A DNA stretch of 64,000 nt, taken from NCBI GenBank assembly GCA_951406725.2, contig OX597827.1:37138001-37202000 (forward strand). The letters are read 5' to 3'. The notes below the pieces were generated by a model. It made no database searches. It worked only from the letters and a program-made list of their open reading frames with translations, and was not told the DNA's origin. How positions within the stretch are numbered: the first letter of the stretch is position 1; each line of letters begins with the position of its first letter. This stretch comes from Octopus vulgaris (taxonomy: Eukaryota). Of the stretch, positions 7,433-60,960 are shown piece by piece. The position numbers were made by a program, and so were the translations under genes.

Positions 7433-8110
7433 TCACCTAACGGGATACAGTCATGGATCAGATCTAATTTCGATTCACTAAAAAAAGGATGACGTATTTC
7501 TTCCATGGCCAAACTGTCGTTCCGCTTGGATGGTTTCCTAACAGGATATATTCGTTGAGACTGGGTTTTGATTGGTTTGGAACTATATGACGTCAGTGAA
7601 AAGTGCAAGTGAGGCAGCTAAGCTGAGCTGATATAAACCTAAACAATCACAAAATTCACCAAAACTATACGAACAGACACCAACCAAAAATCATTACAGT
7701 TGCTCCCATTGGAACACAAGGTAAAACCTAAAATGAACTCCTCGCTTTTTCAAGAACAGGAATTTTTTATATTTGACTCTATTGAATGCATGTCACAATT
7801 ATGAACTACTACATCATACTCTTTAAACATATAGCATGGACTTGCTTTATTATATATGAATTTTTTATATTTGACTCTATTGAATATTATATATGAATTT
7901 TTTATATTTGACTCTATTGAATATATGTCACAATTATGAACTATTACATCATACTCTTTAAACATATAGCATGAACTCGCTTTTTTATATATAATTTTTT
8001 TTGATAAGGTTCGTCATTTCAAGAACCGAAACATGTTAAATAAATAATGTATATATAAAAATGAAAATTTGTCTAATATAGCAGCATTTTCAAACTTCAT
8101 TTTTTACAAA
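7433..8110 (+). mobile_element. Penelope-like terminal repeat (pLTR-like) remnant with internal tandem duplications and a hammerhead motif
   Basis: Bounded by (TA)n; three copies of gaattttttatatttgactctattgaat; hammerhead at 8001-8040; CCAAT/CRE/TATA-like motifs at 7570-7637. The Penelope assignment is inferred from the hammerhead. Confidence 0.55.
7995..8046 (+). ncRNA. Minimal type-I hammerhead ribozyme motif, U3:A8 variant
   Basis: ttt-TTGATAA-ggttc(gtcatttcaa)gaacc-GAAA-catg-T-T-aaa: perfect 5-bp stem II, palindromic CATG loop on a 1-bp stem III, weak A/U stem I. Confidence 0.7.
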
Positions 8111-8131
8111 TATATATATATATATATATAT

Positions 8132-9043
8132 TGTTACGGACCACCCTCGCTTGGTCGAACGGAGAATTCGCCACACAGAGAGGACTCGGTGGGGATGGCA
8201 GCGAAGTCGGCGACCGGAGATAACAACAACAAACAGTAGGAAGAGACACAGAGAGAGACGGAAGGCAATTGGCTACATTTAAACACAGTTTATGACAATC
8301 ATTACAACATCAAATACAATGTGATACATCAGGTACATCAAAGTAAATACAAGCAACAGAATCAACAGCATGCAGATGCAATATACAGTCCAGAGACAAT
8401 AGTTCGAATCCAATTAAAACAAATAAGTTCAGATCAAATAATGTTCACGTCACAACAATTCACGCTACAGTTCAAAGTCCTTCAAAGTCTTTACAATCTC
8501 ATTTCTTTAGCACTGTTCTTTATAACACATCAACAAGTCCTTTACTCAATTCACATTGTTCAATTCTTTTACATAAGTAACACAACTCAATAATCAACAC
8601 ATACCGTACAACAGCCAATGCCTCACACCGTAGTCCTATCTGCCTCAGGCCGTAATCCCGTCTGCCTGTCTTTCTCGACGCTGTCACTGTCACTCTCTCC
8701 CTAGTCCTGTAATACTATCTGTCTGTCCTCCTCTACGCTGTCACTATCTAACCTGTCATCTCTCATGATTGTGTGTCTGTCTTTCTCTGCGCTTCCTTCG
8801 TAATCGCATCTGCCTTGTTACTACCTCAATTTCTCCGGCTGGACTCATCTCAGATTCACAGCTCCTGCTTTTATAAGGTAGTTTCTTTGACCCTTCCTTG
8901 ACCGGCAAAAGGGGAGGGGTCTTTCCAAAAGCCATCACTCTTTCGTGAATCCGACAGAACAAAGGACAATAACTTTACATTGTAGACTTCCAGTCTCCAA
9001 GCCAACCAAAGTAGGTCAAGAAGTACTGTCCCTGAACTGAACA
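8132..9043 (-). mobile_element. Putative solo LTR
   Basis: Sharp GC-richer block starting TGTT and ending AACA between microsatellites; TATAAAA on the minus strand near 8870; no clear TSD. Confidence 0.45.
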
Positions 9044-9280
9044 TACGAATGTATGTGTATGTATATCTGTGTATGTCTATGCATATGTATGTATTGATAT
9101 ATGTATGCATACACATATATATGTATGCATATAAATATATGTGTATGTACATGTATATGTCTGTGTGTGTGTATGTTTGCATTTGTATATTCATATATAT
9201 ATATATAAGTATATGTGTTTATATGTATGTATATGTGTGAGTATGTATATATATATATGCACATGCACACACACATATAT

Positions 9281-9535
9281 CATCATCATCATCATCATCA
9301 TTTAACGTCTGTTTTCCATGCTAGCATGGGTTGGACGATTCGATCGGGGTCTGGTAAGCCATGGAAGCTGCACCAGGCTCTAGTCTGATTTGGCAGTGTT
9401 TCTACAGCTGGATGCCCTTCCTAACGCCAACCACTCCATGAGTGTAGTGGGTGTTTTTTACGTGCCACTGGCACAGGGGCCAGAGCGGCCACGATCAGTT
9501 GGTGCTTTTTATGTGCCACCAACATGGACGCCAGT
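9281..9535 (-). mobile_element. RTE LINE 3' UTR (family B), 5'-truncated
   Basis: (GAT)n tail on the minus strand; ggaagggcatccagctgtagaaac block; ~60-bp repeat units; identity with the 20545-21262 copy that joins the RTE ORF end. Confidence 0.85.
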
Positions 9536-9540
9536 GTATA

Positions 9541-9611
<71 letters not shown>

Positions 9612-9622
9612 ATATATATATA

Positions 9623-9683
<61 letters not shown>
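9536..9683. repeat. (TA)n/(TG)n compound microsatellite
   Basis: Directly visible. Confidence 0.95.
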
Positions 9684-9685
<2 letters not shown>

Positions 9686-10169
9686 CACACACATACATAC
9701 ATATATATTATATGTATGCACATGTATAATGTATGTCTGTGAATATATATGTATATATCTGTGTTTATACATGTATGTTTAAATGTGTGCGTACACTCAG
9801 ACATGCACATATGTCTGCATAATATCTCCAGATGCAACTGTAGCTGGTTATTATGTCTAATATTGTTTACACATGAAACTGAAATATCCAATTAACTTGA
9901 CATAATTGGATATTAAGTATGTTGCGATGAGTATAATAAAGTGTTTGTCTGTTGTATGGCCACACTAAGGAGATGTCACAACTTCATTTAACACTCAATT
10001 TATAATGGTGAATCAATGCAAACTTCCCATAATTCATTATTTCTGAATGTTGCTTCATAGTAGCGGTTGTATCTCTTTATCTGCAGATGTTAGGGAAATA
10101 TGCTGGTTATGCCAAGTAGAGAAGTCTAAAAGATATATCTAGATATGCATATGTGTACATATATACATA

Positions 10170-10290
10170 GATGCAAGCATGGCTGTGTGGTAAGAAGCTT
10201 GTTTCCCAATCACATGGTTGAAGGTTCAGTTCCACTGCATAGCATCTTGGGCAAGTGTCTTCTCCCTTGAGTTGACTAAAACCTTGTGCA

Positions 10291-10342
<52 letters not shown>

Positions 10343-10538
10343 TGTGTGTGTCTTTGTGTCTGTGTTTGTCCTCACCATTGCTTGACACCTGGTGCAGGTT
10401 TGTTTTCGTCCTGATCACTTAGTGGTTTGGCACAAGAGACTGATAGATATAAGTACTGGGGTCAATACATTCAACTAAAAACTCTTGAAGGTAGTGCCCC
10501 AGCTTGGCTGCAATCTAATGATTGAAACACATAAAAGC
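10170..10538 (+). mobile_element. SINE family A (diverged; internal (TG)n)
   Basis: gcatggctgtgtggtaagaagc..atcttgggcaagtgtcttc..tgaaacacataaaag. Confidence 0.8.
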
Positions 10539-10545
10539 AAGATGT

Positions 10546-10730
10546 ATCATCATCATCATCATCATCATTTAATGTTCATGTTCCATTCTGGCATGGATTA
10601 GTTAGTTTGACAGGATTCGAAGGTGTCCAAAGAATGCATCACACTTCTGTGTCTGCTTTGGTATAATATCTATGGTTGGATTGCAACTACTTTATAATAT
10701 GTACTGGGTGTTTTCTTGTGCCATGCAACT
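10546..10730 (-). mobile_element. Old RTE 3' UTR (family B-related) fragment
   Basis: (CAT)n followed by tttaatgttcatgttccattctggcatgg, a diverged version of the family B end. Confidence 0.5.
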
Positions 10731-11261
10731 TGCAATACTATGAAGCCTGGTGGGGCAGCTTTGTGCTTGGAGAAATGTGGTTAGAATTTTTGAAACTTCT
10801 TGACAACCTTCCCTCCCACTTCCAAAGTGATTTTGTTCAATTTTATTTTTTTAGCATTACTCACTTAAAAACAATGTGGGGATGCCTTTCCAGTAAGAAA
10901 AAAAAACTGAAAATTTATTAATTTTTTCAACCTCCTCCCCCTCCCCCACTCAATAATGATTTTAGCATATTTTTATAGGAAAAGACGTGAAGGTTAAAAA
11001 AAAAGCAAAAATCTTTGGCTCATGTCAAACTGTCCCACCCAAGCCAGCATGGAAGGCGGACATTAAACTATGATGATGATGTTAACTTCCTTATCTCCAT
11101 TTTCTTTTCTTTTTTTAACTGGATATAAACTATATGCTTAATATATACTTATTGTTTTAAGGGAATTTCATTCCCCCAAAATACTAGGTATTGAGCCAGT
11201 ATTTCCTTGGATGCAACCATCCCTTCACAAAGTTAATATATCCTCTCTCTCTCTCTCTCTC

Positions 11262-11650
11262 TCTTTTACTTGTTTCAGTCATTTGACTGAAGCCATGCTG
11301 GAGCACCACCTTTAGTCAAGCAAATCGACCCCGTGACTTATTCATTGTAAGCCCAGTACTTATTCTATCGGTCTCTTTTGCCGAACCGCTAAGTGATGGG
11401 GACATAAACACACCAGCATCGGTTGTCAAGCAATGCTAGGGGGACAAACACAGACACAGACACACACACATATATATATATATATATACATATATACGAC
11501 AGGCTTCTTTCAGCTTCCGTCTACCAAATCCACTCACAAGGCATTGGTCGGCCCGGGGCTATAGCAGAAGACACTTGCCCAAGATGCCACGCAGTGGGAC
11601 TGAACCCGGAACCATGTGGCTGGTTAGCAAGCTACTTACCACACAGCCAT
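11262..11650 (-). mobile_element. SINE family A, near full length
   Basis: Highly similar to 40603-41018 in the same orientation. Confidence 0.9.
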
Positions 11651-11793
11651 TTAATCCTCTGATTAAATTTTATATATATATTGGAAAATGTGTGAAATGC
11701 TTGGTTCAGTTAGGTATTTTGTTTTGTTTTTGTTTTTGTTTTTCCAGTTTCAGCTTTTTTTTTGAGCTGTGGCCATGCTGGGGCACCGCCATT

Positions 11794-11953
11794 GTGGTGA
11801 AAGAGTACAGCAGGGATCACCACCCCCTGCCGGAGCCTCGTAGAGCTTTTAGGTGTTTTTTCGCTCAATAAACACACACAACGCCCGGTCTGAGAATCGA
11901 AACCGCGATCCTGCGACCGCGAGTCCGCTGCCCTAACCACTAGGCCATTGCGC
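11794..11953 (-). mobile_element. tRNA-derived SINE family D, 5' half
   Basis: Reverse complement gcgcaatggcctagtggttagggcagcggactcgcggtcgcaggatcgcggtttcgattctc matches 47175 onward. Confidence 0.85.
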
Positions 11954-12031
11954 ATATAGGTATATTTGAAAAAGGAAAAGAATGACTTCACTGGTAGTTC
12001 TCATCAATTTAATATTTTAATAATATAATCT

Positions 12032-12079
<48 letters not shown>

Positions 12080-12625
12080 CAGTCATATCAAAGGGAAATG
12101 GAAATTAATAGAAATTTTCACTTCCAGTGGCCTAGCGTGTAAAAATTTAGTCCAAAGACTATGTATTACTCATAAAATACTCATAAAAATACTCACTGGA
12201 AGTGAAAATTTCTATTAATTTCCATTTCCCTTCGAAATGATTAAGTATTATAAGTTTTTGGATAATTTTCGAATTTTGAAAGTTGGCATTTTTTTATTGT
12301 TGATGAGGAGCTGCGCCTGCGCAGTAGATTTGAAAAATTTAGGCTGTATAAACAAGGGATATATTTGATTGCCTCATGTTTATATATTTAATCTGAGGTG
12401 TACCCATTGATAATGATTTCACCTAGCAAATTATCTTATTTGCTAAGCTAAAATCAGAAACCAATTGGTCCAGGAAACTAGATGGTAAAAGTTTATATTT
12501 TTCATTTCATTCCTTTCGGAATTTTATTCTGAATTTTGTGGTTTTAGAACCTAGCTGTTCTTTCTAGCATGATGAATCCTATGAGTGGATTCCTCTTATT
12601 TATATAAATGTACACTGTATTTGAT
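12080..12625 (+). mobile_element. Penelope-like terminal remnant with 39-bp inverted repeat and hammerhead motif(s)
   Basis: IR arms 12091-12129 and 12194-12232; hammerhead-like 12407-12470; bounded by (TA)n. Confidence 0.55.
12400..12478 (+). ncRNA. Hammerhead-like motif, U3:A8 variant, long stem II, stem I degenerate
   Basis: TTGATAA-tgattt..tagcaaat/atttgcta..aaatca-GAAA-ccaattgg-TC: palindromic stem III and GUC cleavage triplet; stem I pairs poorly. Confidence 0.55.
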
Positions 12626-12634
12626 ATATATATA

Positions 12635-12952
12635 TCATCATCATCATCGTTTAACGTCTGTTTTCCATGCTAGCATGGGTTGGACGATTTGACCAGGGTC
12701 TGGGAAGCTGGGAGGCTGCACCAGACTCCAGTCTTATCTGGCAGTGTTTCTACAGATGGATGCCCTTCCTAACACCAACCACTCCATGAGTGTAGTGGGT
12801 GCTTTTTATGTGCCACCGGCACAGGTGTCAGGCAAGGCTGGCAATGACCACGATCGGTTGGTGCTTTTTACGTGCCACCGGCATGGAGGCCAGTCGAGGC
12901 GGCGCTGGCAATGGCCACGTTCGGATGGATCTTTTTATGTGCCACTGGCACT
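12635..12952 (-). mobile_element. RTE LINE 3' UTR (family B)
   Basis: (GAT)n tail, conserved block and repeat units. Confidence 0.85.
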
Positions 12953-13575
12953 GAGAGAGAGAGAGAGCAATGTATATTGCAAAAATTTTCAACATGTGAA
13001 ATATTAGTCCCTTCTTTTCATTGCCTGTTACAGATGCTATTTCTGTGTTCCCTTCTGTTGAAGAGTGTAGGCTCAAAACGTAAAAGACTATCTCATTTCT
13101 CAAGTGTTAAACTAATACATCTGTTTGTTGCTTTGTCTTTGTCGTTTGTTTTTTGTTTTTTTGTAAATTCCATCTATCTATATATATATATATATACATA
13201 CACACACTCACACATATCATTTAATGTATAGAGTATAAAAATAAGAGCTACTAATAGTTTCTTACTTTAGAGACATGGGTCTAGGCAAGTTTTATAACAC
13301 GCCTTGTGTCTCAAAGCAATCTTCAGGCTTTGACCACATGGTCTATTCCATTTGCAAATAAGGATGCTGGTATAAGAGAAATCACAAGAAAGTATAAGAA
13401 GGTAGATGCAAAAAGTGGAAAGATGAATAAAAACAGAAAAAGTAAAGAAAATTACAATTATGTCTCCTTTTACTATAATGACAGTTGTTGTAGAATCATT
13501 CAACGGAGAGGGATCCAAAGTCTGTGAGACACCTACTCAATCCTAAGAGGGTGGTGTCCGCCAGTTTGCAAGAAG

Positions 13576-14235
13576 AAATTTGGGATCTTCGTGGTTTTTG
13601 TCGATGTTTACAATTTTATGCCAATTGTCTTCAAATTTGGTATATGGATTAAGTTTTGTACACTAGTTATGAAAATGAAATTCATTTTCCCTATAAATCC
13701 ATAATTACAAAATTATTAGCCTTAAAAATTTGCCAATTTTGGGTATTTTAGCCAATGTATTTTAGCCAGTGAGTATTTTAGACATCACCATGGCAAAGAA
13801 GTCTGTTTCTATAGTAACCATAGCAAAAAAGCACCACGTGTTCCATAGCTGATTGTGAAGAACTCTGTTTCCATAGTGACCAAAGATGCTGCACATGTGC
13901 ACAGGTGTGTAACCACCACTTGTTCTATAATTGTTTGTTCTCATAACAGATGGAACTCACACTCAACAATTTTAATTTAATGTTTTGACATGCCAATGCC
14001 CCCACCCCCACCCCCTGACGAGAGAAGAGGCAGCAAATGCACTGTTTTCTGATTGGCTGAAAATTCTGAATATTATCAAACTTTGAACACCTGTAACATT
14101 TTTGCAAAAAATTTTCTTGAATAAATGAATAACAAATTCAGATTCAGTGCTAAAAATTATATCTATATGATACATTAAAACAATTTTTTAAAGATAATTG
14201 TAAACAGTGACGAAAACCACAAAGATCTGAAATTT
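13576..14235. mobile_element. Non-autonomous DNA transposon/MITE with ~40-bp terminal inverted repeats
   Basis: Left aaatttgggatcttcgtggtttttgtcgatgtttacaatt versus the reverse complement of right aattgtaaacagtgacgaaaaccacaaagatctgaaattt. Confidence 0.7.
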
Positions 14236-14244
14236 GTCCATATC

Positions 14245-14960
14245 CTTGCATTTGCTGAAATTTTATATCTAAAAAGAATGTGTGACCTTTCAGCTACACT
14301 TAAATTGCATTTTTTGATCCATTAACATATGGCATGGATTTCTCTAAGATTCTCCACCTGATTGTATGTGGTAAGCAGTTGGTCTTCAAAATCCATATAT
14401 GGTTAGCCAACTTAATGGTTTTACTGCTGTTGATGTGCTGGAAAGAAGATAGGTGGTTTGCATAACATCTTTTGAAATCCCCTTCACATAACTTGATGTT
14501 TCTCTTTTTGGTTAAGTTATCTTGAAGCATTACTGTGACTTCTGCCTCATATCCCATATACATGCATACATACATACATGCATGCATGTATGTTCTCTTT
14601 CTCCTTTTAATCTAGAGTAAATTTTAACTGGTCATTTAGTCGGTAGCAAGGTTGTGACTGAAAGTATCTTGTTTTAACCACCATCCTTTAATCTGAAGAA
14701 GATCTTGCAGATTTTTGTAGTCTCAGATACTGTGATCAGTTGTGGCATGTACGTATGCATACATGATGCATGTATGCATGATTAGTATTTAGATGTACTT
14801 CACTATTATATCTTTCTATGCAGTTTGAATTAAAATCCCCTAATAGTAGTAACTATTGTATCCCTATGTGTGTTGAGTATTTGGTTATAATTTCTACTGC
14901 TAATATATCCATATCTCCCAATGTGGTCCCTATCTAAATCAATCTGTATTTGAGTGTGTT
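14245..14960 (-). mobile_element. Penelope-like element fragment (GIY-YIG endonuclease region)
   Basis: ORF 14300-14587 contains LCEGDFKRCYANHLSSF..KLANHIWILK..IRWRILEKSMPY..GSK, the PLE GIY-YIG signature; the upstream extent is uncertain. Confidence 0.65.
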
Positions 14961-16147
14961 TGAAACTATTGTGATATTCATCAATATCTAAAACAAAACT
15001 GTTTCAATAAAACAATGAGAACGAACATTACTTATGTTAACTGTTATATTGTTGTTTTGAAAGAGTTTTCTTTTGGCCGAATTGATTTTAGATTTAGGAA
15101 AACCTGCATTTCTACTGTATTGCACAACACATTTGTAAAAAATTACTTTGAAAAACTTTTCAAAAATAAACCACTAAAAAATAGAAATGGTGACTTCTAA
15201 AATAGTGGAACAGACATACTCAAAGAGAGCATAAACCAATCAAACAGGATAAAAACAGAGGTAGTGAGGTGTTTTCTGGTGCGTTTGATATTTCTTTCTC
15301 GTTTGGATAGTAGTAGTGATGATGATGGTGGTGGTGGTGGTGGTGGTGGTGGTGGTGGTGGTAGCGGTGGTACCAAAACGAAAAAAAAAACTTGAATCAT
15401 ATATAAAAATGTAATTCTTGGCTGCAGCAGCAGGAATGTTTATTTTTGTTTTTCTTCTTTTTTTTTTACTTCAATGGAAATATAGATTTATACTGATCTC
15501 TACTGAAAGATACGTAGAAGAACACGGAAAAGATTACTTTCCAAAACTGAAGCACTTACAATTACCACACACATGCATGCATACACACAATTATACACAC
15601 ACACATGTACACACGCTCAAGTACACACATACATAACGTCACAATCATTTTATAGCCATTTTTTATATTGGCATGTGTTGGCCAAGTCACAAAGCACTAC
15701 ATCTTACATCCACCCCAGCACACATACACACACTCACAGAACACACATATATGCATACACATGCACATGTATACACACTCATATATCTTCTTACACACAC
15801 CTGCTTACACACTCACATACACACATGCATACTCACACACATTTATGCATACACTCTCATACACACACTGACATACAGACATGCACATATACAAACAGCT
15901 CACATACATACACACTCGCATATACAAATGCATACACACATGCATGCATGAGTGTGTGTATACAAGTTCATACACATACCCACCTGCACATATACCCACT
16001 TATGTGCACACACACACATGCATGCACACATACACACACACACATTTACACATGCTCACATACATATCCACTTATGCACAGACACATGCATGTTCACACA
16101 CATACATGCTTGCACACACTCACATAGATACATTCACACACATGTTC

Positions 16148-16320
16148 CTATTCTTTTATTCTTTTATTTGTTTCAGTCATTGTTTCAGACTGCAGCCATG
16201 CAAATCAACCCCAAGTACTTATTTTATCGGCGTCCCTTGCCGAATCACTAAGTTGTGGGGACATAAACACACCAACATCGGTTGTCAAGCGATGCTGGGG
16301 ACACACACACACAAACACAG

Positions 16321-16330
<10 letters not shown>
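16148..16330 (-). mobile_element. SINE family A 3' fragment
   Basis: ttttatttgtttcagtcat..acataaacaccaacatcggttgtcaagc. Confidence 0.75.
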
Positions 16331-16396
<66 letters not shown>

Positions 16397-16429
16397 TCAC
16401 ATAGCCCCCAACAACATTCACATGATTGC

Positions 16430-20500: not shown

Positions 20501-20544
20501 ACCGATTTTTAAAGGCAAGAAAAAGGTCAATAAATACTTGGCAT

Positions 20545-21262: not shown

Positions 21263-22704
21263 CAGGTTCAGTGTGTAATGCACCAAAATCTGGATGCCTT
21301 AAGACTTCTGTGACTGAAAAAAATGAAATGTTAGTGGCTATGACATTTGTGAAGAGTCTAAAGAAGTTCACACGATGTGCTTTCTCTGTCCTATGAAGAA
21401 AGGCTGAGGACGCTCGACCTTTATTCTCTTGAAAAACGCCGCCGCCGTGGTGATCTCATTCTCGCCCACAACATCATAAGCGGAAAGTGTAACCTCTCGA
21501 AAGAGCTGTTCTTCACTCCTGCTCCAGAGCGTCAGCTGCGGGGTCATTCCGAAAAGCTCTACCTGCGACGATTTCATCTCAATCGAAGGAGAGGAGCTTT
21601 CTCCGTCTGGGTTGCAGATCCGTGGAACAAGCTGCCAGACGAGATGGTGAAGATGCCGACGACCGCTTTGTTCAAAGCCTCTCTGGACCTCAAGTGGCCT
21701 GAACTCTTTACATGAACACCACCCTGTACTTAACTCCATGTCCCCCTACATGGCCTTGCTATTTGCTTTTGAGCCAAATTAACTAACTAACTAACTAACT
21801 ATCCATACTAAAACATCATTGGAATGCCTAATGCATAAGCTGAAATTAAAACCTTTCTCTCCACAACTGGTACATGGTCTTTTGGAGGATGACCCAGATT
21901 GCTGGCTGCAATTCTGAGAAATGATGCATGACCAAATTACTAATGAGCAACCAGACTATCTGAATAAGATCATCTGGTCAGATGAGGCTTGTTTCAAATT
22001 ATCTAGTAATGTAAACAGGCATAATTGCATGTACTGGGCTAATGAAAATCTGCATTTGACTATAGAATCTCAACTGAACCAGCCTGGCCTTACAGGTTTG
22101 GGTTGCACTTTCAAGCAAAGGTGTTATCGGATCCAGTTTCTTTGATAGAGCTGTAAATGGAGAGAGCTACTAGGAAATGCTTCGTGACATGGTAGTTCCA
22201 CAACTCAGAACCAAAGCTAACTCTGATGAACTGTTCTTTCAACAAGAGGGAGCACCTCCACATTATGCATTGACTGTAAGAGACTACCTTAACCAAGCTT
22301 TTCCACAGCTTTGGTTTGGAAAACTGGGCAGCATCGAATGGCCACCATGTTCACCTGACCTGACACCAATGGATTTCTTTTTTGGGGTGTTATAAAGAAC
22401 AAGATTAATGAGAAGAATCCCAAAACAGTAAATGAATTAAAAGATTACATTTCTGATGCATTCACTGAAATTGATGGAGATCTGAATTTGTGCCACACTG
22501 TGTGTCAGAGTGTTCTGAAGAGGTTTGAAGAATGTTGCAATGTTGAAGGAGGATATTTTGAGCATCTGAGAGATTAAACATTGTCTGTTTAAGATGTGCA
22601 TAAATAATATGATTGTAAGATAGAAATTTTAATGTAATAAAATGTTTTTAAAGAAATTTGAAGTGCGTACATGATAACTGTAAACCTACTTTTAGACCAC
22701 CCTG
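21263..22704 (+). pseudogene. Tc1/mariner DD41D (rosa-type) transposase remnant, split by a CR1 insertion
   Basis: IIWSDEACF, VNRHNC.YW, FQQ(E/D)GAPPH..41 aa..WPPCSPDLTPMD; TIR-like end acttttagaccaccctg-TA. Confidence 0.8.
21387..21800 (+). mobile_element. CR1-clade LINE 3' end with (TAAC)n tail
   Basis: SYEERL..LEKRRRRGDLI..LRGHSEKL..FSV.V..PWNKLP; near-identical to 53341-53760. Confidence 0.9.
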
Positions 22705-28330: not shown

Positions 28331-28579
28331 ATAACGATGAATAGCTAACGCGAAAACCAATTGGTTCGTTTCAGTCTCTTACCTTATTATTATTATTATT
28401 AACTTCTTATAATCATCAATAATAATGACCTTTTTGACTAGTAATACTCTAAATGTATATATTTGTCACTACCTGTCATAAATAGCCTTTTTATATCTAC
28501 AATATGAATTTTCGTTGATTTTTCATATTTTACCCTTACATTTCCACATGTATTTTATATTTTTTTCAAAACATATTTC

Positions 28580-28583
<4 letters not shown>
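28331..28583 (+). mobile_element. Penelope-like terminal repeat fragment beginning with an A3:U8 hammerhead-like motif
   Basis: aacg-ATGAATA-gctaacgc-gaaaaccaattggt-t-cgtt; the remainder is homologous to the palindrome at 59990-60403. Confidence 0.55.
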
Positions 28584-41779: not shown

Positions 41780-41822
<43 letters not shown>

Positions 41823-41874
41823 TGTACTTGCATAGCAAGTGATTTGATCTGAGATCGTGTGCTGAAACGAAAAC

Positions 41875-42156
41875 AATTGCAGCGTGGAAGGTGTTTGTAA
41901 GCAATTTAAGAAACACACAAAAGCCGTTCGATTCCCTTCAACATTTAAGTTTAATTTGTCAAAATATTTTCGTTGCTAAAATCCGGGACCTGTTCACTGA
42001 CAAAAATCCGAGATGCAGCATGGATTTTTGTCAGTGAACAGGTCGCGGATTTTAGCGCCGAAAATATTTTGACAAATTAAACTTAAATGTTGAAGTGAAT
42101 CGAACGGCTTTTGTGTGTTTCTTAAATGGCTTACAAACACCTTCCACGCTGCAATT
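41875..42156. repeat. Near-perfect 135-bp inverted repeat (12-nt loop) with mirrored G3:C8 hammerhead motifs
   Basis: Arms 41875-42009 and 42022-42156; flanked by (TA)n. Confidence 0.9.
42027..42076 (+). ncRNA. Minimal type-I hammerhead ribozyme motif, G3:C8 variant (mirror copy 41955-42004 on minus)
   Basis: tttgtca-GTGAACA-ggtcgc(ggatttta)gcgcc-GAAA-atat-T-T-tgacaaa: 7-bp stem I, palindromic ATAT loop. Confidence 0.7.
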
Positions 42157-42349
42157 ATATATATATATATATATATATATATCCATCCCTGACAGTGATA
42201 TATTTTGTTTGTGTGCATGTTTGTGTGTATACACACACACACACACACTTACTTATATATCTATATATATTATAGATGTATGTATGTATGTATGTATGTA
42301 TATATATATATATTTATATATATATACACACATACATACATTGATATAG

Positions 42350-47475: not shown

Positions 47476-47483
<8 letters not shown>
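47175..47483 (+). mobile_element. tRNA-derived SINE family D, full length
   Basis: tRNA-like head ggcgcaatggcccagtggttagggcagcggactcg..ggtttcgattccc; body ends tcacgtgatcacgtga; inserted in (TA)n. Confidence 0.85.
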
Positions 47484-47524
<41 letters not shown>

Positions 47525-47824
47525 ACACCTATATATATGTGTGTGTGTTTGTGTATACATTTTACAGACAAGAAAGTAATAGTTCAAATGCAGTATAGTC
47601 GTGAAAATGGCAGAAAGATTGGGTATTTACCCTTATAAGATGGAAAAAGTTGTGAGCAGACAGCCACGGGACTTGTACCCACATCCACACTAACTGGCCC
47701 ACTGACAACAATCTCTTTCAAATTAAGCGTGAAATATAGCTTTTGGAATGCAACAACATTTTGTTTCTACAAACTTTGGGAGTGTCACTGTGTATCATAT
47801 TTTACAGACAAGAAAGTAATAATA

Positions 47825-49110: not shown

Positions 49111-49140
49111 CTGGAGATCTTGTTTGTTGGTATGCTGGCC

Positions 49141-49198
<58 letters not shown>

Positions 49199-49205
49199 AT
49201 GTGTG

Positions 49206-49250
<45 letters not shown>

Positions 49251-50756: not shown

Positions 50757-52075
50757 TATTCAATTTAATCCAAGATTTCTTGCAGATAGAAAAAAAAACA
50801 GTTTCTAACCTAGATGCAAGGTTCTTTCATTGGAATTGCAACATCAACGACAAGGTATTTTTGTTTGTATATATGTATGTGTGTATGTATGTATGTATGT
50901 ATGTATGTATGTATGTATGTATGTACGTACGTTCGTTTGTTCGTTCATTCGTTCAGATTTGTATGTTTTATGTATATATTCTCATGCATATAGTTACATA
51001 TCTGGACATGCTCATATATATTTAAATAATAAACTGGAAAGTTTTGCAGAATTTTACAGTTCCAGTGATGGATTGGATCTGTAGTCTTCGAATTAGCTTT
51101 CTCCTCTCTGGTTTTGAGAAGCCTAATTTCTCAAGATTGTTATTTAGGCTGTGTGTTACATATAAACCTGAACTTGTAATCTGGATAGAGTAACTGCAGG
51201 TTTCTCAGTAGTTCAGCATATTTCTCAATAGTTCTCTTTTTCACTGATCTTCAGCTTTATGTTAACATCCACTGGGCAGCTAAGTTCCACAACTGTGCAC
51301 AGTTTCTCTTCTCTATCCCAAATCATTATATCAGGTCTGTAGTGCTTATATTTTATTGAGGTCTTCACTGGTGCATTCCACCAGTATTCCTTTTCATTAA
51401 TAGTGGCTATGGCTTGTTTTTATTTCTTTGTCCTCGGGATTATCCTTCTGATGGAGTTCATTATAGAGTGTCCTAGCTAGACTGTCATGTCTCATTGGCA
51501 CATATATTACCATGATGACATTTTCAGGCAATTGCTTATGATGTAGGTGATATCTTCAGTGTGAACTCCACAAAGTCTGCATCGTTTGTTGCATTTTATA
51601 GCTTACCCTGCATCTCAATCTCTTTTGTGCATCAGGTACTTGGTTGATATTTCCTGTTCCTGGAGTGCAAATGCATACCCTTCAAAGTGGGAGGTAGTAG
51701 TCCGGCTATTGGTCCATGATAGATTGCTTTGATAATTGATGTTACTATCATCACAGAGCTTTCTACAAATATATCCATGCATAGTTTTCTGCTCATATAG
51801 GCTCATCCTTTCATGTTGCAGTAGAGTCATGTGACTTCTTTGGGCATGTATTCTAGGTTATCAGATAAAGAATGTTGCTCAAGGAGCTGCCTTCCAAGTC
51901 TTATGATATTATCAACCTCATGTATGCAAACTTGGTGAAGGGATGCACTTCGATGCTTGGTAGTTAAAAGATGTTGCTGAAGGGATATGATGGGACATTC
52001 AAAGGCATTTTGGATTGATGTTAAGCCTTCCCACCTTAAGCAGAGGTGATCTATATCATTGTTTATGTGGAAATT
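50757..52075 (-). mobile_element. R4/Dong-like non-LTR retrotransposon, 5'-truncated (zinc knuckle plus REL endonuclease)
   Basis: MHG..EGYAFALQEQ, CRLCGVHTEDIT.IISNC, RHD, HYRPDIMIWDREEK..VVELSCP, EKENY; ORF ends ~51025; 3' UTR runs to a (TGAC)n repeat. Confidence 0.85.
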
Positions 52076-52122
52076 ATGTGTGCTGTATGTATATATGTAT
52101 GTATGTATATATGTACGTATAT

Positions 52123-52500
52123 GTCAGGTCACTTTCGAGTGCTACTGGTAACATGTAACCCAGTACAACCTGTTGCATGGTCGGGTCATTGGCGACTAAA
52201 CCGGCAACCCCACCAAGCTTGCTTGGTGAAGAGGGTGTTTATTGGACACCCTGCAGGATGAAAAATAAAATCCATCAAAGGGCGGAGGAACTCTTGAGAG
52301 TCAACAGCCATCTAATAAATGTCTTAAGGCTGTATCATACGTGGGGACATAGAAATAATCGGACTGACTACCCGATCGCGCGGTTAAACCATTGGGAGTG
52401 AAGGACTCCTAGCCTTTGTTAGGGCATCCTTCTAGGAGAAGGTAACTCAGGTAACTGGGATAACTCCGACATAAAACCTGCGGCTCAGTGGTTACCGATG
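52123..52500 (+). other. GC-rich, multi-hairpin element (probable retroelement 5' UTR)
   Basis: Hairpins tactgg/ccagta, caccaagc/gcttggtg, agggtgt/acaccct, actct/agagt, acagcc/ggctgt, atcgg/ccgat, ggagt/actcc, ccttct/agaagg. Confidence 0.5.
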
Positions 52501-53340
52501 ATGTTGACTTGTTCTTCTTTTCAGATTATGGCTGCTGTTGCTTTGTGAGTGGGATTGACTCAGTGCACAGCCTTTCCTCACTTTGAAAAAAAAATCTTCT
52601 TGCACAGGCATTGCATGATAACAACATTGATTAAGCTTTGTGCAATGGCCATACTCGATAACGAGGGGGCAGCCACCATGTATGTACGTACATACATACA
52701 TATGTATGTGAGTGAGTGTATAGACTGATGGGTGGATAGAAGGACAGATATATATTTCTATATGTAATGTCTGCAGAAAAATGCAGTGGAAATTGAAATA
52801 TTTAGTAGAACGAAACACTTAATTTTTGTGCAAAGAATCCTAATATTTAGTTATTCATGTATGCACTATCAATTTTACTACAGTTTTCTCTTGAGAACTA
52901 TTGGCTATTTGGTGAAACATTGAAATTATTAATTAGAAAGCACCATAAATGAAACATTATCAAATTAAAAGAAATTGTGTAAAAATGAATATATAGATGA
53001 TCCTAATCCTGAGCATTGATTAAAAAAGTTAGAGAATAGAATTCCATATGACTTTGGAGTTAGCTTGATTTATAATTGTCAGTATAAAGCTTTGTAACAA
53101 ATAGAATTTAAAAAAAATTTTATATGGAAAAGCATGGTGGTTAACTTTAAACTTCAAATTTGACTTAACAGCTTTTCTGTTTTGGTTTCTAAACAAGGTG
53201 TGTATTGATAAAATATTTGATTTCTATCAACAAATTTTTTCCAGCCATCAAAACAAAGCACTCAGGTGAACCTTCTACACAAAAATAAAACACCATTGGA
53301 ATCCAATTTCAACACTTATTACTAACAGAAGGAGACATAG

Positions 53341-54345
53341 AGTTAGTTAGTTAGTTAGTTAGTTAATTTGGCTCAAAAGCAAATAGCAAGGCCATGTAGG
53401 GGGACATGGAGTTAAGTACAGGGTGGTGTTCATGTAAAGAGTTCAGGCCACTTGAGGTCCAGGGAGGCTTTGAACAAAGCGGTCGTCGGCATCTTTACCA
53501 TCTCGTCTGGCAGCTTGTTCCACGGATCCGCAACCCGGACGGAGAAAGCTCCTCTCCTTCGATTGAGATGAAATCGTCGCAGGTAGAGCTTTTCGGAATG
53601 ACCCCGCAGCCAACGCTCTGGAGCAGGAGTGAAGGACAGCTCTTTCGAGAGGTTACACTTTCCGCTTATGATGTTGTGGGTGAGAATGAGATCACCACGG
53701 CGGCGGCGTTTTTCAAGAGAATAAAGGTCGAGCGTCCTCAGCCTTTCTTCGTAGGACAAATTTTTGAGACCATGAACCATGCGGGTAGCCAGCTTCTGGA
53801 CTCTTTCGAGATGCTGTATGTCTTTGAGGAGATAAGGAGAAGAGGCTTGAATCCCATACTCCAATATGGGTCTCACCAGCGTGACATAGAGTGGTAGGAA
53901 TATGGCTGCTGTGAGCATTCCGAATGACCGTCGAATCAAGAACAGAATTCCGCGTGCTTTGTTGGCAGCATGGACGCACTGGGCCGAAGGCGAAAAGGAG
54001 GAATCCACCAAGATACCTAGGTCCTTTACCTGATCGGTCCTCTCCAGCAGCAGACGACCCGGCTCAAAATCAAGTTGAGTTGCAAGAGTAGAGCCGACAG
54101 GCAGATGACAGCACTTTGACACGTTCAGACACAGGTCCCAATCGTTAGACCACTTCCAAATTTGGTGGAGGCATCGACGAAGATCCTCTATACTACTGCG
54201 AGGAGCGACCAGTTTGATATCGTCGGCAAATAGAAGGGTGTGTTGCGTGAGGTCGTCGGGCAAGTCATTTATGAAGACTAAGAACAACAAGGGCCCAAGC
54301 ACTGAACCTTGAGGCACGCCACTGCTCGCACTGGAGACGTCGGAG
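53341..54345 (-). mobile_element. Young CR1-clade LINE, 5'-truncated, with open RT C-terminal frame and (TAAC)n tail
   Basis: SGVPQGSVLGPLLFLVFINDL, FADDIKL, KDLG, LVRPILEY, RRGDLI; no stops from 54345 to 53430. Confidence 0.95.
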
Positions 54346-54957
54346 TAATATAGTCTGCTGTTAAACTTGCAAGTTTTAATACTGATTTTTACATACTCCC
54401 ACTGAAACACTTTCCTCTAAAACACAAGCACCAAATTTTCCTAAGATAAAAAATTATAATGAATAAAATAAAATTAAAATCACATGTGCAACCACCTATA
54501 ACTTTGTACATCAAACTTAACAAATGCTAGACATTGAAGCTAAACCCCAGACATATATACTACCTAAATACTTCTACTTGTTATAGTATTAACATTAAAA
54601 ATTGTCTGTCTGAAGGAAATTATAAAGCTAAAAATTGGTTTACTATGTCAGTTTTAACACTAACATAACTTCAATTTTGTATATGAGTTTCATTGCTTAA
54701 TTCATTCAAACTGAAATTTTATCAGCACATATGTTTTGGTGACAGGATGAAAACACTGACACTTCACTATTGGATCATAATTGGAACTTAAACTGAATCA
54801 ATATACCATTTAATATGAAATGGCAAATTTATGTATTTGTTTTGCAAGAAAATTTTATCTTACACCAACAAGCAATGTTCAGAATCACATGAAATTATCT
54901 TTTCAAACCTTCCACTTAATCAACAATCAGACTTAGTCTTAGCTCATAGACAGTTTT

Positions 54958-55140
54958 GTATGTATGTATGTATGTATGTATGTATGTATGTATGTATGTA
55001 TGTATGTATGTATGTATGTATGTATGTATGTATGTATGTATGTATGTATGTATGTATGTATGTATGTATGTATGTATGTATGTATGCATGCATGCATGCA
55101 TGCATGCATGTATGTATGTATGTATGTACGTACGTACATA
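54958..55140. repeat. (TATG)n/(CATG)n microsatellite
   Basis: Directly visible. Confidence 0.95.
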
Positions 55141-55531
55141 CGTATATGTCAGGTCACTTTTTATTTCTTTGTCCTCAGGATTATCCTTCTGATGGAGTTC
55201 ATTATAGAGTGTCCTAGCTAGACTGTTCAAGGAAATTTTAGCACACTAAAACACTTTAAAACACTTTAAGCCTATTATATTTCCAAACAACTAAAAATCT
55301 GTGGAACACAACCTCACACATATTTATCATATTAAAAATTTTTTAGTATAATAATACTATATTTTAAATCTATTTTATCTTCATGTACATTGTAAATGCT
55401 TTCAATATTAAATTCTTTGTTACCGACAGCAACAGTACAATTTTGCTAATAATTATTACTGCATTCTTAGACAATAGAAAATAGCTTTTTTGTTGTTATA
55501 ATATATAAAAAGGAATATACAACACTAAATA

Positions 55532-55750
55532 ATCTTTTCTACTATAGGCACAAGGCCTGAAATTTTTGCAGAGTGGGAGACAGTTTATTACATTGACCCC
55601 AGTGCTTGACTGGCATTTATTTCATCATCCTTGGAAGGATAAAAGGCAGTATCAACCTCAGCAAAATTTGATCTCAGAAAGAAAAGACGGATGAAATGCC
55701 ACTAAGCATTTTACCTGGTGTGCTAACAATTCTGCCAGCTCACCACCTTA
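55532..55750 (-). mobile_element. SINE family C (diverged)
   Basis: Similar to 33487-33692. Confidence 0.75.
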
Positions 55751-57302
55751 CACAACACTAAATAATAAACCCAGCATTTTTATTATAATAAGGTTCCACC
55801 TGACCCCACTCATTTTATCATTTAAACCTAGACTCAGTTTCTACTCAACTAGTTTTTATACCCATGAATAAATTAGCTACCTGCAAATTTCTATTATTTT
55901 TAATGTAATTTCATCTATGTATTTTTTCATTTCTTCCATGACAGCTTTTTTCTTTTAATTACTTATAAATCAATTGATTAAATAGGTACATACCACATAA
56001 TTATTTCAGCTCATACAATCTTCATTTCACTTTGGTTAAACAGCTAATTACTCCCCTTGACATTCTTCCATTATCTTTACTCCTCCCACTTAAATTTTAT
56101 TTCAACTTTGTTTAATCCACTTCAAAATTACTTATGATAATTTAATCCACCTTAAAGATACCATTTAATAATTTATATTTTATCAGTCATTCTAAAGCAA
56201 TGACACCTACATACTTCCTTCAACTTTGATGGTATTTTGCATATATTTTTTGCTTTGTATATCAGTGTTCATATAAGTTATTTATACACCCTTTTATCCA
56301 CATTTTAATCTTTTGTAGACCAATACTATTTTAATCCTCATTTTTATACCTTATAATCTTTTATCATCAATCATATATCCCAATGTAATTTATATTCCAG
56401 CATAACTTAAACTCCAGTGTAACTTATATTTCAATATAAAATATTCTAATATAACTTGCCTTTCAGTGCAGTCATTATTACACTCTTTTATTTGGATGTC
56501 ATGTGTTTTATGTTTTTTTCTTATTTAATAATTCTATTGTTCTAGTATAAAACATGTTTCTCTCAATAACAAACAGTAGTTTATAAATATAAATTTGGCA
56601 CAACCTCTGTAAAAGCTGTTATTTTATGATATGGACATTTTATATTCATCTTTCTCCTTCATATGTGTGTGTGTGTACAGGCGTGGTTGTGTTGTTGAAA
56701 ATTTACTTCTCAACCATATGGTTTCAGGTTCAGCCTTACTGCATTACTACATAATATCTTGGGCAAGCTCCTGGCCATGTGTGTATGTGTGTTTTTCTTT
56801 TTTTGGGTGTGTGGAAAGGGAGACAACAGGGCCCGAGCATTGCCAGGTCACTGTCATCTCTCTTGCCACACACACCTCAAGCCAAATTCTTCCTCTTCTA
56901 GTCAGTTCAGCATGCCTTGGCCTTTTAACTCAGGTATGTCTATCTTTTTCCAGCTTTTTTCTCTCCTTATCTATTCTCTCTGTAGAAAAGTTCACACTCA
57001 AAGTATTAAAGACGTTTTCCATTTTTCCTGAACATCAACCTAATACACTTTGACCTCATCGTTGTGTTTTCTTCAATTTTGGACCATATATTTTATACGC
57101 TCATGTGGTCATCCCAGTGTGATCTTCACTGATTAAACCTTCTCCTTTCTTGGACTCCCATCTCCTTTATGACTTATTTCTTGGATTATTGCCACCTCTC
57201 AAAGACTACCTTACCATCAAACTCCATCCAAATTACCACTTGAACTTTATACTACTTGGACTACCACCTTCCTGAATCCAACTCTGCACTCTCGTTTGTG
57301 TG

Positions 57303-57342
<40 letters not shown>

Positions 57343-57363
57343 GTATGTAGGTATGTATGTATG

Positions 57364-57397
<34 letters not shown>

Positions 57398-57456
57398 TAT
57401 ATATATAATGTATGTATATGTGTATATATATATATGTATATATGTATGTATGTATA

Positions 57457-58182
57457 TCTCTATATATAAAACTGAAATGCGTTTTTACCGCTTGGATAAC
57501 TTTCAATGCCACTACATCCCGTCCGATTCACTCCAAAATTTACAGGGACATGTAGAATGAGGTGATGATGCTCCTGGGCTACCTTAGAAATCCCTATCTT
57601 AAAAGGTGTGGTTGCTAGGGGCCATCTTCCTCACTCACGCTATTTCCTCCAATACCCTCTCACTCCTCTTCATATTTAACTTTGAGAATTCCACTACCGT
57701 TATTTAAAGTATCTGTCACTCTCGCTATTTCCTCTCTTTTTCACTGACTCTGTTTCCTACCTTCCCATCACTTCAGTGGCGTTCTTTTAAGTATCTGTCT
57801 GTCACCAACAACACACGAGCATGAGAACAAATATTATGAATCAGATATTCTTGCGTTCATTTATATGTGTGTGTGTTCTATATATAAATATCTATATATA
57901 CAAAGTGTATATATCTGTATTTATGTATATTAAACTTTTTCATACTTTTTCATAGTTATATATATTTTTAAACAAATTATAAATATAATTTAATAATTTT
58001 CATTTTCAATTTAAATAATTTTTATTTTTCAATTTTATATTTTATATATTTTCTATATTATATTTTTTTTATGTTTTTGTTTTTGGTTTTTCACTTTTTG
58101 ATTTGCCTATTAGTGGTTTTATCTCTAATTTAATTTATACAGATATATATCTCATTTGTATATATTTATATATATAATGCGT

Positions 58183-58255
<73 letters not shown>

Positions 58256-59445
58256 GTGTGCATTACGTAGTCAGTCGATTCAGCTGAAAATATGCACACC
58301 TATGTTAAAAGTGCTGGCAAGTTTGCATGACAACTATTTTTTTCCTCTAATGAAAGGCGTCACCTCTAGGACAAAATTCCTCATCTTATAAAATGTGGCC
58401 CCAGTAGACCCGAATGAAATCGGGTTATATTAACCAAAATGTGAAAAGGGGTCTAAATAGGGCTGGAAGGGGATTAAAATTTCAAGGAGCGGGTGTTTAG
58501 GAATTCTCTGTTACATCAAGCTAAAAAATTTGCGCCAGCCTTTTAATTGTCAATGTGTTGCCGACCATGATAAAGAAGTTTTGAATGCTTGCCATGGTGA
58601 GTCTACTGTCGTGAGAAAGAATCACTTCAAAACTTGGTGTTTACGAATTTTCTTTTACATCAAGTTCAAAATTTTACGCCAGCCGTTAAACTGTCAATAC
58701 GTTGTTGTCCGTCGTTAAGAAATTCCAGCCATGGTGACTCTACTATCCTCAGATTCTATCCCTTCAAACTTTGGTTTCCAATATTTTATTATTTTTATTC
58801 AGCTCGCAAGTTCGTCTGTCCCTTTTAAATGTTAGTGTTTTGCTGTCTGCCTTGAAGCAGACCTTTCCGTTGCCACTGCCTGATATTTATGATTGATCTT
58901 TCTAAATATATTATTTCTCAACTTACTCAAGATCTTCTGTTGTTTATAAATGGGAGAGAGATAGATAAAGATAGAGAGTAAGAGAAAGCGAGGGAGAGAC
59001 TGAGAGAAAAGAAAAGTAAGAGAGTGGGAAAGTGAGAGAGAAAGGAGAGAGAAACAAAGACGGACAATCATCATCATCATCATCGTTTAACGTCCGTTTT
59101 CCGTGCTAGCACGGGTTGGACAGTGTGACCGGGGTCTGGGAAGCCAGGAGGCTGCACCAGGCTCCAGTCTGATCTGGCAGTGTTTCTACAGGTGGATGAC
59201 CTTCCTAACGCCAACCACTCTGTGAGTGTAGTGGGTGCTTTTTCGTGCCACCGGCACAGGTGCCAGGGGGGGCTCACAGCGGCAACGATCGGTTGGTGCT
59301 TTTTACGTGCCATCGGCACAGAAGCAAGTCAAGGCGGCGCTGCAATCGGCCACGTTCGGATGGTGCATTTTACGTGCTGAAAGGAAGCAACAGAAAGTAA
59401 CAACCACACTCTTACCCGCGCGTAGAGCGGGTCACCTTCAGCTAG
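57457..59445 (+). mobile_element. Non-autonomous Helitron with nested RTE 3' UTR
   Basis: A|TC..tatatataaa 5' start; 3' hairpin acccgc/gcgggt (59414-59432), then CTAG (59442-59445)|T. Continuity of the interior is assumed. Confidence 0.65.
59068..59377 (-). mobile_element. RTE LINE 3' UTR (family B) inserted in the Helitron
   Basis: (CAT)n and the conserved family B block. Confidence 0.85.
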
Positions 59446-59526
59446 TATATATAATATATATGTATATATATGTATATATATATATATATATGTATATATA
59501 TGTATATATATACATGTATATATATG

Positions 59527-59557
<31 letters not shown>

Positions 59558-59619
59558 ATATGTATCTATATATATGTAAGTATATATGTATATATATATA
59601 TATATATATGTGTATATAT

Positions 59620-59981
59620 AAACACCATCCGATCGTGGCCGTTCGCCAGCCTCATCTGGCACTTGTGTCGGTGGCACATAAAAACACCATCCGAGCGTGG
59701 CCGTCTGCCAGCCTCGTCTGGCACCTGTGTCGGTGGCACATAAAAAACACCATCCGAGCGTGGCCGTGTGCCAGCCTCGTCTGGCACCTGTGTCGGTGGC
59801 ACATAAAATCACCCACTACACTCTCGGAGTGGTTGGCGTTAGGAAGGGCATCCAGCTGTAGAAACACTGCCAGATCTGACGGGCCTGGTGCAGCCTTCGG
59901 GCTCCGCAGACCCCAGTTGAACCGTCCAACCCATGCTAGCATGGAAAGCGGACGTTAAATGATGATGATGATGATGATGAT
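59620..59981 (+). mobile_element. RTE LINE 3' UTR (family B), three near-identical ~60-bp units
   Basis: caccatccga(t/g)cgtggccg..gccagcctcgtctggcacctgtgtcggtggcacataaaa repeated three times; (GAT)n tail. Confidence 0.9.
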
Positions 59982-59989
59982 ATATATAT

Positions 59990-60403
59990 AGTAGAAATAT
60001 ATTACAAAAAGAAAATATAAAATACACGTGGAAATGTAAGGGTAAAATATGAAAAATCTACGAAAATGCACATTGTAAATAAAAAAAGGCTTTTTATGAA
60101 AGGTAATGACAAATATATACATTTAGATGGACTGACGTAGTAATAAAAGTCATTATTATGAGATGATAATAAAGTCAGAAAACAAAGCGAACCATGGTTT
60201 CCGCAAAGCTAAGCGATGAATAGCTTTGCGGAAACTATGGTTCGCTTTGTTTTCTGACTTTATTATCATCTTATAATCATCTCATAATAATGACTTTTAT
60301 TACTACCTCAGTCCATCTAAATGTATATATTTGTCGTTACCTGTCATAAAAAGCCCTTTTTTATTTACAATGTGCATTTTCATTGATTTTTCATATCTTA
60401 CCC
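59990..60403. repeat. Penelope-like fold-back palindrome (~175-bp arms) with an A3:U8 hammerhead-like motif at its centre
   Basis: Arms 60039-60211 and 60221-60403; motif aagcg-ATGAATA-gctttgcg-GAAA-c(t/c)atgg-T-T-cgctt at 60211-60247. Confidence 0.8.
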
Positions 60404-60404
60404 C

Positions 60405-60481
<77 letters not shown>

Positions 60482-60495
60482 TGTATGTATGTATG

Positions 60496-60544
<49 letters not shown>

Positions 60545-60547
<3 letters not shown>

Positions 60548-60960
60548 CAGCTGAAAGACAATGGAGCTCTACACATAATATCATGGAAGCTTCTTGAAAA
60601 TTCAGGCCCCTACATAAATGAGACTAAACATTATAAACTGCATAGCCAAACAGATGAGGATACTAAAGGACTCCCTTAACCCAGGGAACATCCTTAACTC
60701 CAGGACAGAAGTCTTCTGACCCTGCTTGTTCCTCAGGAAATCCCTGCTGGCAGTCAAAGGGAAACAATCTCTTGTTATTGTCAGAGTAGCAAAGTATTTT
60801 CTTCTTCCATTTTCTAGAGAGGCCACTTGCTAGAGAAGCCATAGGCCAAGGGTCTGAAGAAATACTGTAAAGCTAAGCACTTTGTGGATGTGAAACTCAG
60901 GGTAACCCACATCTATCTTTATTTATATACTCTACTGCTCTATCACTTAGAATATGCTTT
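60545..60960 (+). mobile_element. Penelope-like 3' end (GIY-YIG C-terminus) with downstream hammerhead
   Basis: [26 protein letters not shown]; hammerhead at 60850-60908. Confidence 0.7.
60850..60908 (+). ncRNA. Type-I hammerhead motif with canonical C3:G8 core
   Basis: gggt-CTGAAGA-(imperfect long stem II)-GAAA-ctcagg-GTA-accc; stem I gggt/accc. Confidence 0.6.

Follow-up and report, generated by a model that had tools for sequence, protein, structure and literature searches.

The stretch considered here (the window) is a 64,000-nucleotide piece of the Octopus vulgaris genome (contig OX597827.1, here C14, positions 37,138,001 to 37,202,000, forward strand), a microsatellite-rich part of a 2.8-Gb genome with 35% G+C. 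It holds six motifs that resemble hammerhead ribozymes. In the core of that ribozyme C3:G8 is the textbook tertiary pair, and the original prediction was that the six motifs cover all four Watson-Crick combinations at 3:8 and belong to Penelope-like elements (PLEs). The six heptamers (8001, 12407, 28337, 42034, 60216 and 60854, the positions by which we name the sites) are all where they had been placed; after each come a stem II, GAAA, a short sequence that is palindromic or nearly so, and UH. A mirror copy of the 42034 motif has its N3 at 41997 on the minus strand (Table 1). The sites are fragments from the ends of five repeat families, all of high copy number, with hundreds to thousands of first-look candidate relatives per site (1,314, 1,958, 1,168, 501, 1,504 and 1,038). 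Their hosts had been described as apparently unrelated repeats, which is right only in part: 28337 and 60216 represent two subfamilies of a single element (their proteins are 90% identical), and 8001 belongs to a relative of it. The window copies themselves are mostly decayed insertions; because most of them are decayed or unusual, the question of 3:8 was put to their families.

Table 1. Hammerhead-like motifs and the repeat pieces that carry them, in window positions.
Feature	Position	Strand	Remarks
5'-truncated 3' end of PLE, family 8001	7436..8111	+	between (TA)n runs; boundaries approximate
U3:A8 hammerhead motif	7998..8040	+	core 8001-8007; 5-bp stem II; GAAA 8028-8031; U17 at 8037
Retrozyme-like non-coding unit	12077..12622	+	unit of ~480 bp where tandem; 5' piece inverted; approximate boundaries; no ORF found
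Hammerhead motif, U3:A8 in window copy	12403..12474	+	stem I broken; long stem II; GAAA 12457-12460; C17 at 12470
3' end of A3:U8 PLE, subfamily b	28333..28583	+	truncated at stem I; ends in (TA)n
A3:U8 hammerhead motif	28333..28370	+	2-bp stem II; G-A-A-A-A (extra A); palindrome ACCAAUUGGU; U17 at 28366
Inverted copy of G3:C8 PLE end	41820..42012	-	~45-nt tail; N3 at 41997; stem II damaged
3' end of G3:C8 PLE	42019..42157	+	ends in (TA)n
G3:C8 hammerhead motif	42027..42076	+	7-bp stem I; extra G after A9; GAAA 42060-42063; U17 at 42069
Palindromic insertion	60016..60409	.	plus arm is 3' end of A3:U8 PLE subfamily a; minus arm from U8-A9
A3:U8 hammerhead motif	60211..60247	+	5-bp stem I; 2-bp stem II; G-G-A-A-A (extra base); U17 at 60242
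Old, decayed 3' end of probable PLE	60545..60975	+	broken C-terminus of endonuclease-like reading frame at 60548-60752
Canonical C3:G8 hammerhead motif, decayed	60850..60908	+	extra A after A9; long stem II; GAAA 60892-60895; A17 at 60904

At the level of families all four Watson-Crick states at 3:8 are real. Counts were made with exact-context patterns in which positions 3 and 8 were left free, and tallied by hand over the matches listed. Among 6,024 matches to the 42034 family, 95 of the first 100 have G:C; among 247 matches to the 28337/60216 lineage, 95 of the first 100 have A:U; family 8001 shows U:A in 98 of 99 genomic matches, and family 60854 C:G in 52 of 57. The predicted Watson-Crick complementarity holds in these four families, but not in that of 12407, where the first 100 of 102 matches divide into 58 U•G, 35 U:A, 5 C:G and 2 U.U; C.A is absent from the 100 listed and was seen once in another listing. 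A search restricted to CUGANGA would, as had been foreseen, miss three of the four family-level states. The core residues U4 G5 A6, A9, G12 A13 A14 A15.1, U16.1 and H17 form the majority in the G3:C8, 8001, 60854 and 12407 families; the A3:U8 lineage departs from G12 A13 A14 A15.1 as written, most copies reading G-N-AAA. Stems I and II and a small palindromic stem III are present in the family representatives, stem I of 8001 being weak and stem II of A3:U8 having 2 bp. The prediction was to fall if family consensuses lacked UGA/GAAA or 3:8 complementarity, and on that condition it is partly refuted, the commonest A3:U8 subfamily reading GUAAA and 12407 being U•G in most copies. Covariation at 3:8 lies between lineages, with next to none within families, and in the nearest relatives found the pair is mirrored: C:G stands beside G:C, and U:A beside A:U.

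They are minimal type I hammerhead motifs of the PLE kind, as had been proposed, and three of the five families, probably with 60854 as a fourth, are physically tied to PLE open reading frames (ORFs). An ORF with a PLE-type reverse transcriptase (RT) plus, at its C-terminus, an endonuclease (EN) of the GIY-YIG type lies upstream of the motif in the A3:U8, G3:C8 and 8001 families. The A3:U8 motif sits about 180 nt past the stop codon of an ORF that Pfam matches to RVT_1 and GIY-YIG. In the 28337 set, 13 of 30 loci have a same-strand ORF end directly upstream; in the 60216 set, 2 of 30 do. For G3:C8 the PLE ORF ends about 1 kb upstream of the motif in 26 of 30 loci (one partial); one locus (L370) keeps an unbroken 839-aa frame upstream of its motif, this frame itself lying outside the Pfam scan. 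Longer copies of 8001 have a 1.1-kb non-coding region upstream and then an RT-EN ORF (two loci, L368 and L369) whose product shares 54-58% identity with the protein of A3:U8. In the 60854 family, 16 of 30 loci as well as the window copy carry, upstream of the motif, a C-terminus that we take to be endonuclease-like from its sequence motifs; a Pfam scan of this piece gave no GIY-YIG match, and no RT piece was recovered. The same frame in L102, L111 and L112 has a long Asn/Ser/Thr-rich insertion between the halves of an apparent GIY-YIG motif.

Insertion marks described for PLEs (PMC8557442) are likewise present, namely 5' truncation, inverted 5' copies, tail extension and microsatellite targets. 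Inverted 5' copies of this kind account for both the mirror motif at 41997 (inverted arms 41875-42156) and the palindrome around 60216 (inverted arms 60034-60409, the minus arm being without the 5' core); the repeat finder, whose output on the window is dominated by microsatellites, was informative for such inverted arms only. Among 113 insertion ends of the G3:C8 family, 43 are at (TA)n, 42 have a tail and 28 are of other kinds.

The window copy of the G3:C8 motif has a 5-bp stem II with one mismatch and the stem III palindrome AAUAUU. The closest relative found of this element, at 51% protein identity and with weak RVT_1 and GIY-YIG Pfam matches below cut-off, carries C3:G8 in 98 of the first 100 of 3,336 matches. 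Double changes within the G3:C8 family number 14 of 6,024, including six A:U; two transitions account for these, they do not form one subfamily, and there is no C3:G8 among them. A search of sequencing runs with this family gave no RNA run among those listed, and contigs assembled from the runs of four other organisms, few of which span the core, showed no change above 3% at position 3 or 8. On C28 (5211076-5213589, L002) at least 15 units of roughly 170 bp, each a G3:C8 motif plus a (TA)n spacer, follow one another head to tail. This array is a PLE end turned satellite and would make an ideal natural dimer substrate.

The stem III palindrome of 60216 is ACCAUGGU, which reads ACUAUGGU in the window copy. 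The closest relative found of the A3:U8 element is a young family (60-64% protein identity) with a 40-nt motif that has the same 2-bp GC/GC stem II and U3:A8 in 38 of 38 cases. Its members (L338-L367, L371) have frames of more than 800 aa and are identical over 123 aa in 150 of 150 scored matches, suggesting that the family was probably active recently. No double change at 3:8 occurs within the A3:U8 lineage. In 86 of the first 100 copies of the lineage stem II is followed by G and then by U, G, A or C, and the simplest register would keep G12 and insert one variable base after it; a natural ribozyme is described that tolerates an insertion inside GAAA, U13a (PMC3088659). Position 17 of the lineage is U, A or C, as is 60242 across other assemblies, and stem I covaries (A:U 22, G:C 20, G•U 1 and A.A 2 in 45 matches, with overlapping loci recounted). 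Variation at 17 that leaves out G, together with covariation in stem I, is what one would expect of a hammerhead under selection. The related 8001 motif has the palindrome ACAUGU and a weak, all-AU stem I of three contiguous pairs. Upstream of it in L064, L085 and L090 lies a tandem array of CCAAT boxes and TGACGTC (cAMP response element-like), a possible internal promoter. The stem III of 60854 is a near-palindrome only (ACCCAGGGU), with an odd central base.

The family of 12407 consists of tandem copies spaced at 477 and 481, has the stem III palindrome ACCAAUUGGU and, where the longest frames of 30 loci were inspected, shows no PLE ORF. We regard it as non-LTR (non-long-terminal-repeat) retrozyme-like, since it is a short unit without coding sequence, repeated in tandem and bearing a type I hammerhead motif. 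It has both of these features and PLE-like insertion marks in common with the metazoan non-LTR retrozymes (PMC7229834; bioRxiv 10.64898/2026.07.22.740005), but differs in its mixed U•G/U:A/C:G core, and is known here from DNA alone. This mixture is a snapshot of a compensatory swap via wobble.

Taken together, we read the six sites as hammerheads at the 3' ends of four PLE families and of one retrozyme-like repeat, with each lineage having fixed its own 3:8 pair, likely since selection for dimer self-cleavage needs pairing and not base identity. We give this reading a probability of about 0.7. In a monomer a stem III of one to three pairs would be too weak; strands would therefore be exchanged between two copies of the motif within a tandem transcript (PMC4209133; PMC6765202): the palindrome would form an intermolecular stem III, and each 5' strand would pair with the 3' strand of the other copy. 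The element's own protein would probably help, as in the anole PLE, and the cut would fall after H17. The 3:8 pair would act as a clamp, and any Watson-Crick pair would hold G8 in place; its identity would be exchangeable because G8 contributes its 2'-OH and not its base (PMC8495972; PMC6155905). A C3G/G8C swap partly rescues a PLE hammerhead that needs the element's protein for cutting (PMC11167929). Transitions at 3:8 would pass via U•G, which is seen in the mixed population of family 12407. The mirror swaps would have to go through a mismatch, a step that weak selection on a helper function would permit; a G.G minority is present in the G3:C8 family. Computed folds score the target homodimer below two monomers in nine of ten families, bearing in mind that energy models cannot score the core, that the 12407 representative had a broken stem I and that 60854 was unmatched. 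The G3:C8 and U3:A8 families would likely be active in cleavage; for the A3:U8 family this is doubtful.

Might the motifs be chance matches in AT-rich repeats? The loose motif, defined by the core pattern only, occurs 310 times in the window, with a Watson-Crick pair at 3:8 in 86 (28%), and a strict descriptor that includes the stems accepts not one of the six copies in the window; a relaxed descriptor accepts three (8001, 28337 and 60216). An Rfam scan of the window gave no hammerhead among the best 150 of 323 weak matches, only microsatellite-driven microRNA matches, and all 323 fell below the gathering score. But in 1 Mb of evenly spaced genome stretches the strict descriptor found 13 matches, 12 of them Watson-Crick at 3:8 (7 C:G, 4 U:A and 1 G:C) and one G.G, which clusters with C:G copies, as against zero to two in each of three shuffles and five decoy cores, and with the relaxed descriptor 44 of 66 matches were Watson-Crick. 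The architecture is intact in family majorities and the motifs sit at the expected place in PLE ends, so that chance, refuted for five of the six sites at family level, is barely credible as a general explanation. It had also been suggested that the palindromes act as family-specific dimerisation codes, and one could imagine them selected as such against cross-activation or poisoning. Many different palindromes do exist, and in most families computed self-pairing beats cross-pairing with a different palindrome; however, any palindrome is self-specific by construction, and therefore no selection for a code is needed. Moreover, the suggestion is not supported, since palindromes are the same across families and different inside one lineage: ACCAAUUGGU is common to 28337 and 12407, ACCGGU to two U:A families, and further palindromes recur among unrelated matches. 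One lineage's two palindromes still cross-pair (-6.3 versus -11.2 and -13.0 kcal/mol), that of G3:C8 is barely stable (-0.2), and strand-swapped stem I already separates most families. We consider selection for a code highly improbable.

A more serious contender holds that the motifs, though homologous to PLE hammerheads, persist as a folded signal or as mere passengers, with catalysis relaxed and the 3:8 states being drift fixed by bursts of master copies. Several observations weigh against our preferred reading, and most of them would suit this one. The 12407 family has a U•G majority, with Watson-Crick pairs in only 40 of 100. A9 of the hammerhead core is universally conserved, yet in the young C3:G8 relative of the G3:C8 element (L281:1-700, minus strand) position 9 is fixed as C in a 3,336-copy family (C 96, A 3, U 1 in the first 100). 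GAAA follows stem II in only 30 of the first 100 A3:U8 copies and GUAAA in 61, an extra base at G12 is found in nearly all copies of that lineage, and in an alternative register the general base would be lost. The H17 counts for A3:U8 include one pattern that demands non-G, only the 45-match pattern and the other-assembly check being free at 17. The G3:C8 family includes 227 copies with G8, mostly G3.G8 and more than half of them on smaller contigs (C15 onward). Its G.G copies have old-type diagnostic bases and a median divergence of 7.6% versus 2.8%, the latter from a set biased to close copies; we rejected G.G as a proven swap intermediate, given that old-type copies are mostly G:C (96 of the first 100) and the tree is without resolution. 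The U•G majority, the G8 copies, A9C and the extra G12 base, all changes that should impair catalysis, occur in successful families; mismatched cores can therefore apparently spread, and catalysis may be relaxed where such core deviations are fixed. In vitro, hammerhead cleavage is dispensable for insertion, with no reads ending at the cut site (PMC11167929), and Naiads thrive without canonical hammerheads (PMC8557442). Lastly, the trees disagree on the polarity of U:A versus A:U: that of EN nests A:U inside U:A (p-AU 0.032), and that of RT groups the two U:A families (84/91).

Drift alone, however, should fix single mismatches more often than double transversions, yet seven non-C:G families are Watson-Crick: in about 2 Mb of sequence the non-C:G clusters comprise seven Watson-Crick ones (5 U:A, 1 G:C and 1 A:U, the young U:A family being counted as a singleton), two with U•G (12407 and a doubtful three-copy cluster), one microsatellite artefact and one mixed cluster of two matches. 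Among the clean families none has a non-wobble mismatch as its fixed state; in addition, position H17 disfavours G and there is covariation in stem I. We therefore regard relaxed catalysis with drifting 3:8 states as unlikely, and prefer selection for pairing. A bolder version of that preference is that this one genome holds active natural hammerheads of every Watson-Crick 3:8 pair, including the first natural G3:C8 and A3:U8, together with frozen swap intermediates (U•G, G.G) and tolerated core changes (the extra G12 base, A9C). We put it forward tentatively, as possible though less likely than not. If it were true, the core of protein-assisted PLE hammerheads would be far less strict than the textbook consensus has it, and searches built on that consensus would overlook a substantial part of these hammerheads, perhaps also those of elements reported as hammerhead-less.

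Przybilski and Hammann reportedly found in 2007 that all four Watson-Crick pairs are tolerated at 3:8. Minimal type I hammerheads acting as dimers in the pLTRs (pseudo-long terminal repeats) of metazoan PLEs, with a natural U3-A8 in Schistosoma mansoni, were described by Cervera and de la Pena in 2014 (PMC4209133), and those described there resemble ours in the type I layout, the small palindromic stem III, the extra base after A9, the place in PLE ends, the many families per genome, the single and inverted copies, and U3:A8. Found here and not described in the accessible text of that paper are the family-fixed G3:C8, A3:U8, the extra G12 base, A9C and a family with a U•G majority. The natural core variants of Perreault et al. 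2011 (PMC3088659) have U3-A8 covariation, an insertion in GAAA (U13a), 2-bp stems II and weak stems III in common with our sites; in the text available to us, however, U3-A8 is the only variant named at 3:8, and our insertion adjoins G12 instead of following A13. Lunse, Weinberg and Breaker (RNA Biol 14:1499, as cited in PMC6765202) describe dimer-cleaving hammerhead variants with PLEs, sharing with ours the short stem III, cleavage as dimers and PLE association. The engineered C3G/G8C hammerheads of Frangieh et al. 2024 (PMC11167929), among them that of the anole Poseidon PLE, share the PLE context and a swapped pair that partly rescues, but theirs are laboratory mutants, whereas the swap described here occurs naturally, in families that number thousands of copies. 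A laboratory G3-C8 variant is also mentioned in PMC3884650, and no natural swap at 3:8 is mentioned in the passages available of PMC13725137, PMC2920678, PMC10085705 and PMC6155905.

That PLEs have dimer hammerheads, that these are diverse within one genome and that U3:A8 occurs in nature is thus published knowledge (PMC4209133, PMC3088659). Families naturally fixed for G3:C8 and A3:U8 appear to be new, as we found only laboratory mutants in print, with figure-only alignments, supplement file 1 of PMC4209133 and the 2017 survey of Lunse et al. lying outside our reach. Exchangeability at 3:8 is known from laboratory mutants, and in nature the literature covered holds only C:G and U:A; a G:C family of more than 6,000 copies and an A:U family, each beside a relative with the mirror pair, amount to natural covariation that completes the argument. 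The swapped families are also ready-made constructs for asking whether PLE hammerheads are selected for catalysis, and they would be of greater interest still if both G3:C8 and A3:U8 prove active. As a practical matter, descriptors fixed on CUGANGA or GAAA undercount PLE hammerheads.

Two more C3:G8 hammerhead-like motifs, absent from the original prediction, lie in the window at 51254 and 13326, both on the minus strand and both with a long stem II and a near-palindromic stem III. The window's sole RT frame (53430-54416, minus strand) looks by its features like that of a CR1/L2-type long interspersed nuclear element (LINE) and not of a PLE, and it has no linkage to the motifs. A 415-nt inverted copy of the 3' part of this fragment, 98% identical, lies 31.5 kb away at 21387-21801.

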